From assembly GCA_023473585.1 (NCBI GenBank), contig JAMCYU010000004.1, forward strand, positions 133,748 to 197,747: a stretch of DNA of 64,000 bases, in the 5' to 3' direction. Below, in pieces: positions 31,961 through 43,545 of the stretch; the stretch's first letter is position 1; each line of letters begins with the position of its first letter. The stretch comes from Patescibacteria group bacterium (GTDB taxonomy: Bacteria; Patescibacteriota; Microgenomatia; JAMCYU01). Below the pieces are notes generated by a model. It worked only from the letters and a program-made list of their open reading frames with translations. It was not told the DNA's origin and did no database searches. A program made the position numbers and the translations under genes.

Positions 31961-32524
31961 CTATTTCATTACTCTTTCTTCGTATTCTCCCGTTCTCGTA
32001 TCTACTAAAATCCGATCACCTAACTTGACAAAAAGAGGGACTTTAATTTTTAACCCATTAGAAAGGACGGCGTCTTTAAAAATGTTCGTCGCCGAATTGC
32101 CCCTGATCCCCGGTTCGGTTTCGGCAACGGTAAACTCCATTTTAATCGGTAATTCTAAGGTTAAAGGCTCCTCCTGATGAAAAAGAATTTTGACGGTCAT
32201 GCCTTCCTGAAGATAAGGGGCGCTGTCTGCAATTTTTTCGGCCGAAAGCTCAATCTGTTCAAACGTTTGCGGATCCATAAAAACGAAATTGGTCGCTTTG
32301 TAAAGATATTGCATTTCTTTTTTGGCAAGCGACGCTTCTTCAACTTTAGCCCCGGAAATAAAGGATTTCTCCGTGGTTGCCCCCGACTTTAAGTTTTTGA
32401 CTTTAACCCGAATTGTCGCTGTGCCACGACCCATTTTGACATGTTCATAGGTCAAGACCAAAAAAAGATCTTTACCGTCAGTAAAACAAGCACCGGTGCG
32501 TAAATTAGTAACCGGAATCATCAT
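31961..32524 (-). CDS. efp: Elongation factor P
   Basis: KMGRGTATIRVKVKNLKSGATTEKSF matches the EF-P KOW/OB domains. The stop codon is TAG. Confidence 0.9.
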   Translation of the reverse strand: MMIPVTNLRTGACFTDGKDLFLVLTYEHVKMGRGTATIRVKVKNLKSGATTEKSFISGAKVEEASLAKKEMQYLYKATNFVFMDPQTFEQIELSAEKIADSAPYLQEGMTVKILFHQEEPLTLELPIKMEFTVAETEPGIRGNSATNIFKDAVLSNGLKIKVPLFVKLGDRILVDTRTGEYEERVMK

Positions 32525-34002
32525 GCCTCCAAAAAATTTAAAATCGTGCGAACGGCAAAGCCCGTTCCGCCCCGAGGCAAAAGATCAGTCCCTTTCTCCT
32601 GCCAGGCCGGACCGGCGATGTCTAAATGGGCCCATGGCGTTTTGGAAATAAATTCCTGTAAAAAAAGCGCGGCCGTGATGGCGCCGCCAACGTGTCTGCC
32701 GGTGACATTTTTTAAATCGGCGGTTTCCGATTTTAAAAGCTCCCGATAGGTTTTTTCAAGCGGCATCGGCCAGAATTTTTCGCCGACCGCCTCGCCCGCT
32801 TGGCTTATTTCTTTGACTAATTTTTGCTCGTCGGAAAAGATGCCGGCAATGTCCTCGCCCAAAGCGACCAGACAAGCTCCGGTCAGGGTGGCGATGTCCA
32901 AAATAAGGTCGGGTTTTAAGGTTTCACCAAAAGCCAGGGCGTCGGCCAAAATCAGCCGGCCCTCGGCATCGGTATTGACAACCTCGATGGTTTTGCCGTT
33001 ATAGGCTTTAACAATATCACCGGGCTTAATCGCTTTGCCGGAGGGCATATTTTCGGTCACGGGCATTAAACCGATAATATGAACTCGGGGTTTAATTTTT
33101 TCCAAAACCGAAAAAACGGCCAAAATCGCGGCCGCTCCGGCCATGTCCATTTTCATCGTTTCCATCTCGTTTTGTTTTTTCAAGGACAAACCGCCGGTGT
33201 CAAAAGTGATGCCCTTGCCGACCAAAACGATTTTCCTCGCCCGCCGAAGCCTTGGCGAAGGCGGGTTGTATTCCAGTCTAATTAATTTAGGAGGCTCATC
33301 AGAGCCTTGGGCCACGCCCAAAAGGGCTCCCATGCCTAATTTCTTTAAATCCTCCTTTTCGTAAATTTTGCAAAGAAATTTGCTGTTTTTGCCGATTTTT
33401 TCCGCTAAAGAAGCCAAATAGGTCGGCGTCGTCACCGAGGAAGGTTCGTTAACCAAGTCTCGGGCGAAAATTGTCGCCTGACTCAAAATTTCGCCCCTGG
33501 TTAACTTCTCTCTTAAAGACACCAATTCCCGGGCGTCTTTGACCAAAATAACGATTTCTTTTTCCGTTTCTTTTTCTTTTGAAGGCCCAACCGACTTGTA
33601 TTTCCCAAACTGGTAACTTCCCAACGTTATTCCTTCAACTAAGGCCTGTACAAATTCAAAATCAGCCTGATTAGCGAAACCCAGACTCTCGATCCCCTCT
33701 TCCTTAAGTTTCTTGGCTAAGGCGGCAAACACCTGACGGGCTTTTAAGGCATTAAAATCGGCTTTTTTACCTAAACCGAGAAGAATGACTTTTTCGGCGA
33801 AAAGTTTTTTGTATGAAGGAACAATAAGAAATTTGCCCGTTTCGGCCTTAAACTGACGGCGAAGAGTTTCTTTTTTTAAAAAACCTCCCAAAACCCGGTC
33901 GATTTGGTCGGCATAAGGAGTAAAACCTTCTTCCCAAACAAAAAGAGCGATCGCTTCGGTTTGGGCTTGCTCAAGACTCCCGATCTTAAGAGTAAATTTC
34001 AT
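32521..34002 (-). CDS. pepA: Leucyl aminopeptidase (M17)
   Basis: NTDAEGRLILADAL and the catalytic Lys/Arg region. The gene ends with TGA, showing that TGA is a stop codon here. Confidence 0.9.
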   Translation of the reverse strand: MKFTLKIGSLEQAQTEAIALFVWEEGFTPYADQIDRVLGGFLKKETLRRQFKAETGKFLIVPSYKKLFAEKVILLGLGKKADFNALKARQVFAALAKKLKEEGIESLGFANQADFEFVQALVEGITLGSYQFGKYKSVGPSKEKETEKEIVILVKDARELVSLREKLTRGEILSQATIFARDLVNEPSSVTTPTYLASLAEKIGKNSKFLCKIYEKEDLKKLGMGALLGVAQGSDEPPKLIRLEYNPPSPRLRRARKIVLVGKGITFDTGGLSLKKQNEMETMKMDMAGAAAILAVFSVLEKIKPRVHIIGLMPVTENMPSGKAIKPGDIVKAYNGKTIEVVNTDAEGRLILADALAFGETLKPDLILDIATLTGACLVALGEDIAGIFSDEQKLVKEISQAGEAVGEKFWPMPLEKTYRELLKSETADLKNVTGRHVGGAITAALFLQEFISKTPWAHLDIAGPAWQEKGTDLLPRGGTGFAVRTILNFLEA

Positions 34003-39740: not shown

Positions 39741-40655
39741 ATGCAAAAAGGACCGACAACACCTAAAGGTTTCCGCGATATTGAGCCGAATTTAGCCAAA
39801 AAAAGACGCGAGGTTATGAATAAAATCGTCTCGGTTTTGGAAAATTACGGCTTTGTTCCCGTGGAAACACCGACTCTGGAATTTGCCGAAACTCTTTTGG
39901 GCAAATACGGCGAGGAGGAAAAATTAATTTATCAATTTACCGACCGCGGCAACCGGAAATTGGCCCTGCGCTATGATTTAACCGTCCCTTTGGCCAGGTT
40001 TGTGGCCAATAACCTGGGGCTTCTTAGTCCCTCTTTTTCCCGCTATCAGATCGGCCAGGTTTTTCGCGGCGAAAATCCGCAAAAAGGCCGTTTCCGCGAA
40101 TTCACCCAGTTTGATTTTGATACCGTCGGCAGCAATGATTTAACGGAAGATGCCAAAATCATCGCCGCCGCCATTGAAATCTCCCGAAAATTAGGTCTTC
40201 CCAAAGCGATTATGGCCGTAAACGACAGAAAGTTCTTCCAAGACGTTCCCGTTGAAGTTATCAGGGCCTGGGATAAATATTATAAAATCGGCCTTGATGG
40301 CGTTAAGGAAGAACTCAAAAGAAATGGATTAACGAATGAAGAAATCGAAAAAAATATTAATCTTCTTGATAAATCTGAAACTTCGGATTTTACCAACGTT
40401 TCGCAAATTCTTAAAACAGCGTGGAATCTTAAAGAAGGTCAGGACTTCTTTTTTGACAAATATTTAGCCAGAGGTTTGGATTATTATACCGGTTTGATTT
40501 TTGAACTTAAACCCAAAGATTTGCCCCAAGATTTATCCATCGGCGGCGGCGGCAGATATGATAACTTAATCGGGATGTTTGCCCAACGTCAGATTCCGGC
40601 CGTCGGTTTTTCTTTTGGTCTTGATCGCTTATTGGAAATATTATCTGCCTCATGA
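39741..40655 (+). CDS. hisS: Histidyl-tRNA synthetase-like class II catalytic core (no anticodon-binding domain)
   Basis: Motif 1 region, FRYQIGQVFRGENPQKGRFREFTQFDFD (motif 2 and His-binding), GGGGRYDNL and GFSFGLDRL (motif 3). The protein stops at 304 aa, right after motif 3. Confidence 0.7.
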   Translation: MQKGPTTPKGFRDIEPNLAKKRREVMNKIVSVLENYGFVPVETPTLEFAETLLGKYGEEEKLIYQFTDRGNRKLALRYDLTVPLARFVANNLGLLSPSFSRYQIGQVFRGENPQKGRFREFTQFDFDTVGSNDLTEDAKIIAAAIEISRKLGLPKAIMAVNDRKFFQDVPVEVIRAWDKYYKIGLDGVKEELKRNGLTNEEIEKNINLLDKSETSDFTNVSQILKTAWNLKEGQDFFFDKYLARGLDYYTGLIFELKPKDLPQDLSIGGGGRYDNLIGMFAQRQIPAVGFSFGLDRLLEILSAS

Positions 40656-41545
40656 GACTCAAAGCAACTTTAGCTTTAATTCTTGCCAACGTGATTTGGG
40701 GCGCGGCTTCTCCGATTTTTAAATGGAGTTTGGAAAATATTCCTCCCTTTACCCTGGCTTTCCTGCGCTTTAGCTTGGCCTCCTTTTTCCTTTTGCCTTT
40801 TATAGGCAAGGATCTTTTTCGTCTCAAACGCACGGACATGCCGCAAATTATTCTTTTTGCCCTCTCTGGTATCACCATTAATATCACCTTTTTCTTTTGG
40901 GGTTTGAAACTGGCGCCTTCTGTCAATGCCGCCTTTATCAGTACGACTCAACCTTTAATTCTTTTGCTCCTGGGAGCTTTTCTTTTGCAAGAGAAAGTCG
41001 AACCGCATGAGGTTTTCGGCACGATTGTTTCTCTAACCGGCGTCCTTTTAATCATTCTTATTCCCCTGATGACTTCCGGCCTTCAGGGCGAAACCGTTGT
41101 TTTGGGCAATCTGTTTTTTGTCCTGGCCACTCTTGGGGCTGTCGGCCAAGCCTATTTCGGTAAAAAACTTCTCGCCATCAACAAATCTTTACCAATCACT
41201 TTTTGGTCTTTTACCATCGGGGCCTTAACTTTTTTGCCTTTTTTCCTCTGGGAACAAACGACTAATCCCTCCTGGGTCATGGAATTAGGAACGCCGGGGA
41301 TCGTCGGTATTTTCTACGGCGCCATACTCTCCTCGGCTTTGGCCTATTCTTTTTATGATTGGGGGCTTTCCAAGATTGAGGCTTCAGAAACCGGCATTTT
41401 TTCTTATCTGATGCCGATTACCTCGGTTTTGGTGGCCATCCTCTTTTTTGGGGAAAAATTAAGTCGGCAATTTGGAATCGCCGCTTTTTTAATCATTTTG
41501 GGGATTACGGTTGCCCAAATCCGTCTTCACAAAAAGATAAATTAA
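40652..41545 (+). CDS. EamA/DMT-family transporter
   Basis: Ten TM helices in two EamA repeats. Confidence 0.75.
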   Translation: MRLKATLALILANVIWGAASPIFKWSLENIPPFTLAFLRFSLASFFLLPFIGKDLFRLKRTDMPQIILFALSGITINITFFFWGLKLAPSVNAAFISTTQPLILLLLGAFLLQEKVEPHEVFGTIVSLTGVLLIILIPLMTSGLQGETVVLGNLFFVLATLGAVGQAYFGKKLLAINKSLPITFWSFTIGALTFLPFFLWEQTTNPSWVMELGTPGIVGIFYGAILSSALAYSFYDWGLSKIEASETGIFSYLMPITSVLVAILFFGEKLSRQFGIAAFLIILGITVAQIRLHKKIN

Positions 41546-41563
41546 TGGTATAATAAGCGTCTT

Positions 41564-41869
41564 ATGAAAACGAATATTCATCCGCAATGGTACACGGAAG
41601 CCAAGGTCACTTGTGCCTGCGGCCATAGTTTTACCGTCGGCTCGACCAAGCCGGAAATCAGAGTCGAGATTTGTCATAAATGCCATCCGTTTTTTACCGG
41701 ACAATTAAAATACGTTGATACGGCCGGTCAGGTTGAAAAATTTCAAAAAAAGCAGGCGATCGGTTTGGCCAAGGCTCCTGATTTAGCTAAACTTAAAGCG
41801 AAGAAAAAAGGCATTGTTGAAGAAAAAGAGGCACCAAAAAGCCTCAGAGAAATGCTAATGGGAGAATAA
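41564..41869 (+). CDS. rpmE: 50S ribosomal protein L31 with C-terminal extension
   Basis: [28 protein letters not shown]...[10 protein letters not shown]. Confidence 0.85.
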
Positions 41870-41877
41870 ACTTCGTT

Positions 41878-41972
41878 AATTAACCTAATTGACCTAATTA
41901 ACCTAATTTCTAAAAAATAACCCATTTAATAATTTTTTTAGGTCAATTAGAAATTAGAGCAATTAGAAATTT
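41878..41972. repeat. CTAATT-rich palindromic intergenic element, copy R1
   Basis: Tandem CCTAATTRA units with inverted repeat CTAATTGACCTAA...TTAGGTCAATTAG and AATTTCTAA/TTAGAAATT. Core TTGACCTAATTTCTAAA is shared with the copies at 58119 and 58993. Confidence 0.7.
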
Positions 41973-41974
41973 GT

Positions 41975-42652
41975 ATGTTGAATCCCAACACGGTTATTCT
42001 CGAAATTCGCGGCGCGGCCGGAGGCGATGAGGCCAAAATTTGGGCTGAAGATCTTTTACGCATGTATGGCCGCTTCGCCGTTAGCCAGGGCTGGAAAATT
42101 GAACCTTTAGGCGAAGGTACGGTGAAGATTGCTGGTGCTGGCGCTTTTGAAAAATTAAAAAACGAGGCCGGCGTGCACCGGGTCCAAAGAATTCCTCAAA
42201 CCGAACGCCGGGGCCGAATTCATACTTCGACCGCGACAGTCGCTGTTTTGCCAGAAATTCCCGAAACCCAGGTTTATATTAATCCCGCTGATTTGGAAAT
42301 GCAGGTTTATAGAAGCTCCTCACACGGGGGCCAAAACGTTCAAAAAGTTTCCTCCGCCGTCAGATTAATTCATAGGCCGACCGGTTTAGTCGTCTCCTGT
42401 CAAACCGAAAGAGACCAATGGCAAAACCGGCAAACGGCTCTTGGTATGCTTCGGGCTAAGCTCTGGGATTTGGAAGAAGAAAGAAAAAGACTACAATTGG
42501 CAGATTTGCGTCAGGTTATCGGCCGCGGCATGAGAGCGGAAAAAATTAAAACTTATAATTTTCCGCAGGATCGGTTAACCGATCATCGGCTTAATAAATC
42601 CTGGCGCCATTTAGAAAAAATCCTCGCCGGAGACCTTAACCAGGTTATTTAA
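41975..42652 (+). CDS. Class I peptide chain release factor, RF1-like, lacking N-terminal domain 1
   Basis: VILEIRGAAGGDEA, codon-recognition loop RVQRIPQTERRGRIHTS (PQT where canonical RF1 has PAT) and SSHGGQNVQKVSSAVRLIH (GGQ). Only 225 aa; domain 1 is absent. Confidence 0.75.
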   Translation: MLNPNTVILEIRGAAGGDEAKIWAEDLLRMYGRFAVSQGWKIEPLGEGTVKIAGAGAFEKLKNEAGVHRVQRIPQTERRGRIHTSTATVAVLPEIPETQVYINPADLEMQVYRSSSHGGQNVQKVSSAVRLIHRPTGLVVSCQTERDQWQNRQTALGMLRAKLWDLEEERKRLQLADLRQVIGRGMRAEKIKTYNFPQDRLTDHRLNKSWRHLEKILAGDLNQVI

Positions 42653-42686: not shown

Positions 42687-43199
42687 TCATCTCCTTAAAG
42701 CTTCTATTAATTCGGCTTTTCTCTCATCAATCATCTTCCCGCCGGCTAAAAGAACAAAAGTTCTCAACCAGTTTAATTCAAAATCATCAAGCTTTTCGGC
42801 CATTCTTTGCGTACTGTGTCCCAACATGTGCGGCAAAGCCTTAAAACAGTCTTGCAGCTTATAACTTTCGCTCTCGACCCTGCGACCCGGAAGCGTTAAG
42901 CTCTTCCTCCTTAACTCGAGGCCGCTTTTAGCCAAGGCAACGAGTTTTTTTAAGGCTTCTTTATCTTTGTCGTCAAGAGGCTTAACTAAACAGCTAATTT
43001 CATGAACTAGCCCTGACGCGGTAAAGTCCCCGTAGTGTTTAGTTTCCTCCCTGTCCCATACGCTCCCTGTCTGCGGCAGTCCGTCCGGAGACTGCAAAAG
43101 GTCGGCCAGGATCAAAACCATTTTTTCAATTCTCAAAACTCCATAGAGATAATTTACTTCCCCGCTTCTGAAAAAACCGGTTTCAGGTTTTGACCCCAT
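42687..43199 (-). CDS. Hypothetical protein
   Basis: No confident motif; possibly a hydrolase-like helical protein. Confidence 0.35.
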   Translation of the reverse strand: MGSKPETGFFRSGEVNYLYGVLRIEKMVLILADLLQSPDGLPQTGSVWDREETKHYGDFTASGLVHEISCLVKPLDDKDKEALKKLVALAKSGLELRRKSLTLPGRRVESESYKLQDCFKALPHMLGHSTQRMAEKLDDFELNWLRTFVLLAGGKMIDERKAELIEALRR

Positions 43200-43212: not shown

Positions 43213-43545
43213 TTATTGTCGGCTTTCCCAATAAAGACAAATCTTTTCTCCTTGAGGAGGAATGATGGTTATATTAACGCCAGCTTCTGGTTGAAGACAA
43301 AAAGGGGAATTGATTTTGCTGTTTTCCACCGAACCGTCTGATTTCCTTTTCTCTAAAGTAACCTCGCCAGGAAAACGAACCTGAAGGGTTCCGTTTTTTT
43401 GCGGAACAAACATTACCTCTGATTCTCGATAGGCAACAACGTCAGTAATTTCTTCTCTCAACGGCCTGCCCGAGGGATCACGGGTTGTTTCAATCCACGG
43501 CGGCATAAAACTTTCCTTTCTTTTTGGCAAAAAATAGCTGCCCAA
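43213..43545 (-). CDS. Hypothetical protein
   Basis: No recognisable motif; the start may be the internal Met (MPPWIETT). Confidence 0.3.
   Translation of the reverse strand: MGSYFLPKRKESFMPPWIETTRDPSGRPLREEITDVVAYRESEVMFVPQKNGTLQVRFPGEVTLEKRKSDGSVENSKINSPFCLQPEAGVNITIIPPQGEKICLYWESRQ

Follow-up and report, generated by a model that had tools for sequence, protein, structure and literature searches.

A release factor 1 without domain 1 at the rpmE-prfA locus of Patescibacteria

The DNA analysed here, referred to as the window, is a 64-kb stretch of a Patescibacteria group bacterium genome (GCA_023473585.1, contig JAMCYU010000004.1), and at positions 41975-42652 of its plus strand lies a gene for a class I peptide chain release factor that is made up solely of domains 2, 3 and 4. 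The gene is most likely the housekeeping release factor 1 (RF1) gene of this genome, the positional and phylogenetic orthologue of prfA, naturally minimised to domains 2-4. Besides the window, 81 related loci with 20-kb flanks (1.3 Mb in all) were inspected, namely the best 80 from a scan in which each GTDB species was represented by one genome, and L001, a locus on the 787,768-bp contig JBFOMW010000009.1 of GCA_040960625.1 from a relative with 96% identity. The gene and the functional elements of its product are:

41975-42652, plus strand: prfA, encoding a domain-1-less RF1 of 225 residues with domains 2, 3 and 4 only (open reading frame, Pfam, NCBIfam, PDB, alignment)
42020-42034, plus strand: GGDEA, residues 16-20, the tip of helix alpha-5, aligned to E. 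coli RF1 G120-A124
42185-42229, plus strand: codon-recognition loop QRIPQTERRGRIHTS, residues 71-85, with Q71, P74-Q75-T76 (the PxT 'anticodon') and H83-T84 (motif, alignment)
42326-42334, plus strand: GGQ, residues 118-120, the catalytic motif of peptidyl-tRNA hydrolysis (motif, RF-1 domain)

The protein begins with MLNPNTVILEIRGAAGGDEA and contains RVQRIPQTERRGRIHTS, in which PQT is encoded at 42194-42202. The exact start is ambiguous, because the MNPN of relatives aligns to TTG at 41978 and not to ATG at 41975; the true start is either of the two, and no Shine-Dalgarno-like sequence was found before ATG 41975 or TTG 41978. In a residue-by-residue MAFFT alignment, with E. coli RF1 numbering, the missing parts are residues 1-105 (domain 1), 146-155 (a loop of domain 2) and 342-360 (the C-terminal tail), giving a total deficit of 135 residues. 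The residues that matter for termination are all retained. By alignment, Q71 corresponds to Q185 of E. coli RF1, P74-Q75-T76 to P188-A189-T190, H83-T84 to H197-T198, G16 and E19 to G120 and E123, and GGQ 118-120 to GGQ 233-235. Across 63 aligned family members G16, G17, E19 and A20 of the alpha-5 tip, Q71, P74, T76, H83 and T84 of the loop and the GGQ motif are invariant, while residue 75 is free. We take the GGDEA tip to be the reader of the first stop-codon base, U1, as in established RF1-ribosome structures; the structure reported by Laurberg and colleagues in 2008 is said to have assigned U1 reading to this tip.

Profile and structure comparisons place the protein with RF1. The best NCBIfam models are those of RF1 (NF001859, 306.8 bits; TIGR00019, 301.9 bits), and both align only from model position 104 or 111 on. 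The RF2 model TIGR00020 reaches 200.7 bits against a cutoff of 370, the tripeptide being PQT and not SPF. The PrfH model TIGR03072 gives 63 bits against a cutoff of 166.65 and matches residues 97-194 only, which is the GGQ domain, and the ArfB model NF006718 gives 45.4 bits against a cutoff of 100 and matches residues 98-133 only. In Pfam, the PCRF match is limited to model positions 100-194 of 194, whereas the RF-1 domain PF00472 is complete (positions 2-116 of 116, 117.8 bits). RF1 chains in the PDB match residues 6-225 at E = 1e-71 to 1e-57 with 42-48% identity, the best being those of T. maritima (residues 87-317), S. mutans, E. coli (110-340) and T. thermophilus. Since the PCRF, NCBIfam and PDB alignments all begin past the N-terminal region, domain 1 is absent. 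Judged by these matches, 41975-42652 encodes a genuine RF1-type class I release factor.

The original prediction, made from the letters of the DNA, had described a class I release factor with its N-terminus at the boundary between domains 1 and 2, about 130 residues shorter than canonical RF1 and RF2, with a normal GGQ loop and distinct from a PrfH paired with RtcB, and it had proposed a classification with models of RF1, RF2 and PrfH. The boundary is borne out by the PCRF, NCBIfam and PDB matches, the explicit alignment makes the deficit 135 residues, and the GGQ at 42326-42334 lies inside a complete RF-1 domain. The models return 302-307 bits for RF1, 201 for RF2 and 63 for PrfH. A pairing of PrfH with RtcB was likewise considered and rejected, as the PrfH score is below its cutoff, the upstream gene is rpmE, and no RtcB was found in the window or the 81 related loci by tblastn with E. 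coli RtcB.

An AlphaFold2 model built from the family alignment has a mean predicted local distance difference test (pLDDT) score of 83. It superposes on ribosome-bound, open RF1 with template modelling (TM) scores of 0.86-0.89 and root mean square deviations of 2.6-3.0 Å, and on the closed crystal forms of free RF1 and RF2 with TM scores of only ~0.55. As modelled, the protein is a complete codon-reading and catalytic RF1 body that lacks the N-terminal arm.

The truncation is an old and selected state, not damage. Homologue statistics refer to the best 120 protein-database matches, which are 201-257 residues long (median 231.5) and share the same N-terminus. They come from NCBI, JGI, ENA and Logan, and those that carry names are assigned to Gottesmanbacteria, Microgenomates or Patescibacteria. 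The same architecture is found in at least 120 independent sequence clusters, some of them on contigs of up to 788 kb. Between the gene and its counterpart in L001 the synonymous divergence (dS) is 0.53 and the nonsynonymous divergence (dN) 0.023, a dN/dS of 0.043. In every locus of the short clade the first in-frame stop on the upstream side is 2-33 codons away from the conserved N-terminus. On this evidence a frameshift, a contig break and a pseudogene are all excluded.

The following features lie immediately upstream of the gene:

41526-41554, plus strand: promoter-like site, sigma-70-like, TTCACA-17-TATAAT with an upstream TG (11/12 consensus matches, a consensus match only)
41564-41869, plus strand: rpmE, ribosomal protein L31, 101 residues (open reading frame; the syntenic gene of L001 matches PF01197 Ribosomal_L31)
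41877-41971, no strand assigned: AT-rich imperfect palindrome in the rpmE-prfA spacer (repeat and hairpin analysis)

The promoter-like site lies 10 nucleotides (nt) upstream of rpmE and probably drives a putative rpmE-prfA transcript, which would fit an operon of the two genes. The gene for L31 ends 105 nt before the start codon of prfA, and in L001 only 9 nt separate the rpmE stop from the prfA start, which leaves no room upstream for domain 1, as the original prediction had argued. That prediction had named an upstream frameshift restoring domain 1 as a finding that would refute it; rpmE abutting the gene and the in-frame stops 2-33 codons upstream exclude such a frameshift. What it had called a 105-bp repeat element, the only thing between rpmE and prfA, proved to be the AT-rich palindrome, composed of three 9-bp-spaced TAATT[A/G]ACCTAATT repeats and inverted copies, with a predicted hairpin of -21.7 kcal/mol (z = -2.4). 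The palindrome is a recent insertion, as L001 has only 9 nt at this place. A miniature mobile element, a terminator and an operator are candidates for its nature; the idea of a repeated mobile element was rejected, since the window holds no other copy. Downstream of prfA, the genes at 42687-43199 (minus strand, 170 residues) and 43213-43545 (minus strand, 110 residues) gave no match in Pfam. The syntenic region downstream of prfA in L001 contains three small unannotated open reading frames (ORFs).

Gene order and phylogeny both assign the gene to prfA. An L31 gene lies immediately upstream of the RF1 gene, on the same strand, in 59 of the 81 loci, and all 59 belong to the candidate phyla radiation (CPR). 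Because full-length prfA of the CPR shares this rpmE-prfA synteny, the short gene is its positional orthologue. The spacing between the two genes tracks the length of the N-terminal extension: it is 13-58 nt in the short clade of Microgenomates, with L005 (125 nt) as the one exception, 97-137 nt in another four forms that are short or nearly so (L034, L042, L066, L070), ~200-380 nt in forms with a remnant of domain 1 and 360-700 nt in full-length forms. A neighbour-joining tree of the region common to all RF1 forms unites the domain-1-less RF1s of Gottesman-, Shapiro- and Roizmanbacteria in a single clade nested within CPR RF1, with a Levybacteria-type clade as its sister group. The Levybacteria-type proteins (284-311 residues; L007-L047, e.g. 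L022:9800-10663) keep an N-terminal remnant of ~67 residues, MxDYRxxQxxELExKIEETKxLLxDP..., which aligns to E. coli ~53-105, and share the 10-residue deletion of domain 2 with the short clade. RF1 of Woesebacteria is full length (358 residues). Reduction in Microgenomates was thus apparently stepwise, from the full form (Woesebacteria) through the ~67-residue remnant (Levybacteria) to the complete absence of domain 1 (Gottesman-, Shapiro- and Roizmanbacteria and the present genome).

A second group of short proteins is found in Parcubacteria. The RF1 of L066 (Paceibacteria) and L070 (Portnoybacteria) also lack domain 1, have a domain 2 of canonical length and group with full-length Parcubacteria RF1 in the tree; they belong to a clade of ~240-248 residues (L070, L066, proteins P0271-P0390), and in a search with L070 105 of the best 120 homologues had at most 255 residues. 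On the evidence of the tree, domain 1 has been lost at least twice, in Microgenomates and independently in Parcubacteria. The reduction is clade-wide and recurrent across the CPR and not the peculiarity of one genome, an aspect that the original prediction had missed. A few relatives of the Parcubacteria short RF1, 284-294 residues long, have a short coiled-coil N-terminus that matches PF16326.

The linkage of prfA with prmC differs among these lineages. The prmC gene, which encodes the HemK methyltransferase acting on GGQ, is directly downstream of prfA in the Chloroflexi loci (L052-L079) and follows prfA in five CPR loci, of which L043, L063 and L065 have a full-length RF1 and L039 and L049 one with a remnant of ~66-72 residues. 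It was found next to prfA in none of the Levybacteria-type or domain-1-less loci (L001-L038), and nowhere within the 64-kb window.

The PQT tripeptide in place of the P-A/V-T of RF1, which the original prediction had emphasised, is indeed present, yet as a distinguishing mark it does not stand. The P and T of PxT are invariant, and the middle residue in the best 120 homologues is Q in 25, T in 24, A in 22, K in 17, E in 14, V in 7 and I in 4, with D (2), S (2), G (1), N (1) and R (1) as rarer choices, twelve residues altogether; in the 80 genome loci it is K, E, V, T, A, Q, S, L or N. RVPQT is also found in a full-length RF1 of 357 residues from Anaerolineales (Chloroflexi; L057). A change of specificity through PQT was rejected for the reason that position 75 varies equally in full-length Chloroflexi RF1, and the sequence GGQNVQKV (GGQHVNTT in E. 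coli) was rejected as a lineage-specific change, being common to the same full-length proteins. Under the tripeptide rule, discrimination is assigned to the first and the third residue of the tripeptide (Ito et al. 2000, cited in PMC1586002).

All three stop codons are used in the window. Among 67 long, non-overlapping ORFs, 45 end with TAA, 17 with TGA and 5 with TAG, and one TGA overlaps the ATG of the next gene (40652-40655). The original prediction had read TGA as a stop codon from the end of pepA; this gene (32521-34002, minus strand) does end in TGA, and the reading is confirmed. Since all three stop codons are in use, RF2 activity is needed. Searches for it gave the following: tblastn with RF1 found no RF2 gene in the window or in the 1.3 Mb of related loci; none of the candidate prfB neighbours SecA, FtsE, FtsX and SmpB was found in the CPR loci; and a search of representative sequences with an RF1 query returned RF1 clusters only among the best 150. 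A degenerate DNA pattern for SPFD-x3-RRHTSF found 21 loci on viral contigs, which are phage or host RF2 genes, none of them CPR-like. The SPFD pattern combined with a compact domain 2 gave at least 120 matches on metagenome contigs, none compact among the ~105 that could be measured; these have the canonical 54-residue spacing, the ATGTAY anchor having matched elsewhere in the gene. At a guess from their sequences, these metagenome matches come from other phyla, being acidobacterial-, SAR11- and actinobacterial-like.

Several other explanations of the short gene deserve consideration. It might be a specialised paralogue, akin to PrfH, ArfB or another rescue factor, with routine termination left to a canonical full-length RF1 encoded elsewhere; the known domain-1-less class I homologues PrfH and ArfB/ICT1 are rescue factors (PMC1586002; PDB names), NCBI calls relatives of the protein 'release factor-like protein', its scores are under the RF1 equivalog cutoffs, and only a window of this genome is visible. 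However, the gene fills the conserved slot after rpmE that full-length prfA holds in other CPR lineages, it is nested within CPR RF1, and its RF1 stop-codon residues are all invariant, whereas those of PrfH are altered (PMC1586002). The PrfH model stays at 63 of the 166.65 bits required, tblastn with RF1 found no second release factor homologue in the window or the 81 loci, where RtcB was not found either, and no assembly among the best 80 genome matches supplied two loci. We consider such a paralogue unlikely. A split RF1, in which domain 1 is a separate small protein encoded elsewhere that associates in trans, seems less probable still. It would suit the description of domain 1 as a flexible, loosely attached helical module (PMC1586002) and the frequency of gene fission in reduced genomes, but eight domain-1 queries (E. 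coli, Chloroflexi, Woese-, Levy- and Collier-type, Parcubacteria) gave no tblastn match below E = 0.1 in the window and 13 short-clade loci, the ~67-residue remnant of sister lineages points to progressive deletion and not to fission, and the C-terminal tail is gone as well.

That PQT, or the remodelling as a whole, has altered decoding, for example by creating an omnipotent factor that reads UGA too and renders RF2 unneeded, is very improbable. TGA ends 25% of the ORFs although no RF2 is found in the window or related loci, and the middle residue of PxT is unusually free in the short-RF1 family. On the other hand, the window is about 8% of a genome of ~0.8 Mb and RF2 is expected elsewhere, the discriminators of the second and third bases (P74, T76, Q71, H83, T84) are invariant and of RF1 type, position 75 is equally variable in full-length Chloroflexi RF1 (PQT in L057), and the tripeptide rule puts discrimination on the two outer residues (Ito et al. 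2000, cited in PMC1586002). Least credible of all is a truncated pseudogene or an artefact of assembly or gene calling (frameshift, contig break, wrong start). A deficit of 135 residues in a single window derived from a metagenome-assembled genome would normally point there, and an unusual palindromic insertion lies just upstream; against this stand the at least 120 independent clusters of the same architecture from four sources (NCBI, JGI, ENA, Logan), the adjacent rpmE with stops closing all upstream frames, a dN/dS of 0.043 at a dS of 0.53 and the confident, complete predicted fold.

The assignment as housekeeping RF1 has its own difficulties, and four points weigh against it. Both RF1 equivalog cutoffs are missed (301.9 against 423.25 bits for TIGR00019; 306.8 against 400 for NF001859), a shortfall that arises because model positions 1-103 or 1-110 and the tail are missing. 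UAA/UAG-dependent release by the short RF1 is a predicted activity. E. coli RF1 is reported to be inactive on ribosomes lacking L11 (Tate et al. 1984, in a reviewer comment in PMC1586002); it is thus not evident that the natural loss of domain 1 is neutral, and compensating changes are implied. Finally, the view covers the 64 kb and the 20-kb flanks of the related loci, and a further prfA of canonical form, a separate domain-1 protein or RF3 may be encoded elsewhere. We nevertheless infer that the gene encodes the sole RF1 of the cell. The protein would work like RF1 and is an RF1 orthologue, yet it departs from the formal picture of the family in two respects, the lack of domain 1 and the score below the model cutoff.

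The short RF1 can be compared with several known systems. It shares domains 2, 3 and 4 with canonical RF1 (PrfA; TIGR00019/NF001859; E. coli, T. maritima 1RQ0, T. thermophilus 4V63), including the PxT loop, the alpha-5 tip, the Q/H/T decoding residues, GGQ and the switch-loop region, and it occupies the same slot after rpmE as full-length CPR prfA. Unlike canonical RF1, it has no domain 1, no domain-2 loop 146-155 and not the last ~19 residues, and prmC is not adjacent. The mitochondrial mtRF1a is also an RF1-type factor of a reduced translation system and a close structural match (7nqh, TM 0.86). Its PxT motif is PKT, with a middle residue that is neither A nor V. However, mtRF1a retains an N-terminal domain, as its chain has 362 residues and the match to the short RF1 begins at residue 108. 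ArfB, ICT1 and C12orf65 are reduced class I release factor homologues that work without domain 1, but the codon-reading superdomain 2/4 is missing from them too and their action does not depend on stop codons, whereas the short RF1 keeps domains 2 and 4. PrfH (RFH; TIGR03072) resembles the short RF1 in having GGQ and no domain 1 (PMC1586002), and, GGQ aside, the absence of domain 1 is all that they share: the codon-recognition residues of PrfH are altered, an RtcB-like gene always lies upstream of it, and its role is in rescue or repair, while the short RF1 has RF1-type residues and no RtcB. The closest architectural parallel in the laboratory is the N-terminally truncated E. coli RF1 and RF2 engineered by Mora et al. 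2003 (via PMC1586002), which have the same domains 2-4. Those constructs carry a growth cost, whereas the short RF1 is natural, selected and clade-wide, has been trimmed further, within domain 2 and at the C-terminal end, and presumably works on ribosomes co-adapted to it.

No description of a domain-1-less RF1 in CPR or Patescibacteria was found in full-text literature searches that covered journals outside subscription. Neither the paper of Burroughs and Aravind on release factor evolution (PMC6514570) nor the survey of prfB frameshifts (PMC12421855) mentions such a protein, and a full-text search of the paper on the small CPR ribosome (PMC9297842) does not return the term 'release factor'.

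How termination might proceed with such a factor can be proposed from what is known of domain 1. In RF1 this domain touches L11's N-terminal domain and bridges to domain 3 of RF3 (PMC3677378). Its deletion left codon specificity and in-vitro release unchanged and abolished stimulation by RF3, and truncated RF1 was functional in vivo (Mora et al. 2003, via PMC1586002); the same paper describes prfC as non-essential and missing from many small genomes. The short RF1 would bind the A site in the manner of canonical RF1, read UAA and UAG through the GGDEA tip of alpha-5, Q71, P74 and T76 of the PxT loop and H83-T84, and hydrolyse peptidyl-tRNA via GGQ. Without domain 1 it would make no contact with the N-terminal domain of L11 or with RF3, and ribosome binding and exit would therefore take place without stalk docking or RF3-driven recycling. 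The factor would leave by spontaneous dissociation or during recycling by RRF and EF-G. UAA/UAG specificity and RF3 independence are thus what we infer for the short RF1, and by analogy with E. coli the loss of domain 1 probably needed compensating changes. A broader scheme is possible, though we lean somewhat against it as a whole: entire CPR lineages may terminate translation with a stripped-down apparatus in which RF1, and perhaps RF2, work without domain 1, L11 docking or RF3 recycling, prmC is lost or unlinked and the ribosome has compensated, a state to which Microgenomates would have come in steps and Parcubacteria by convergence.

The domain-1-less RF1 of the CPR is a new natural form that should be moderately surprising to a specialist in termination. 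To our knowledge, domain 1 is present in essentially every bacterial RF1 and RF2 that has been studied, where it serves RF3 and the L11 stalk as a handle. Until now the dispensability of domain 1 was a laboratory result that came with a growth cost; in nature the deletion has occurred repeatedly and become fixed in large clades, which argues for RF3-coupled recycling and stalk docking being optimisations and not requirements. If the broader scheme is true, CPR termination is in effect nature's own test of which components bacterial termination really needs. The short proteins also offer a ready-made minimal RF1 for structural and kinetic work. The series of full, ~67-residue remnant and absent domain 1 suggests a path by which the translation apparatus of ultra-small bacteria was reduced during evolution, in parallel with the loss of ribosomal proteins L30, L9 and L1 in CPR that is described in PMC9297842.

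There is a practical side for annotation. The short RF1s score below the curated RF1 cutoffs and are named 'release factor-like' or 'PCRF domain-containing' in databases, and RF1 will be counted as missing from these lineages wherever a pipeline relies on TIGR00019 as a universal marker. TIGR00019 presumably belongs to the GTDB bac120 marker set. Many contigs with a CPR-type rpmE-prfA pair are titled 'uncultured Gammaproteobacteria' or 'Pseudomonadales' (L004, L015, L018, L020, L023, L024 and others), and further records of this type are titled 'Methylomirabilota', 'Acidiferrales' or 'Firmicutes bacterium ML8_F2' (P0326 is among the entries concerned). These titles look like taxonomic mislabelling or mis-binning in public records.

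A different kind of reduced factor was observed on viral contigs of IMG/VR, where RF2-like ORFs of ~110-170 residues occur (L083:6850-6888, L093, L102, L099:163-201); a similar one is present on the metagenome contig Ga0187875_10039120 (L166). They keep the SPF superdomain (Pfam PCRF only, up to 108 bits) and lack domain 1 and the whole GGQ domain, their sequence passing from ...RRHTSFAAVSVMPDIDD straight to ...IRSYVLHPY.... We know of no description of RF2-like proteins that keep the SPF superdomain without the GGQ domain. From their sequences, these proteins could be catalytically dead, phage-encoded binders of stop codons.

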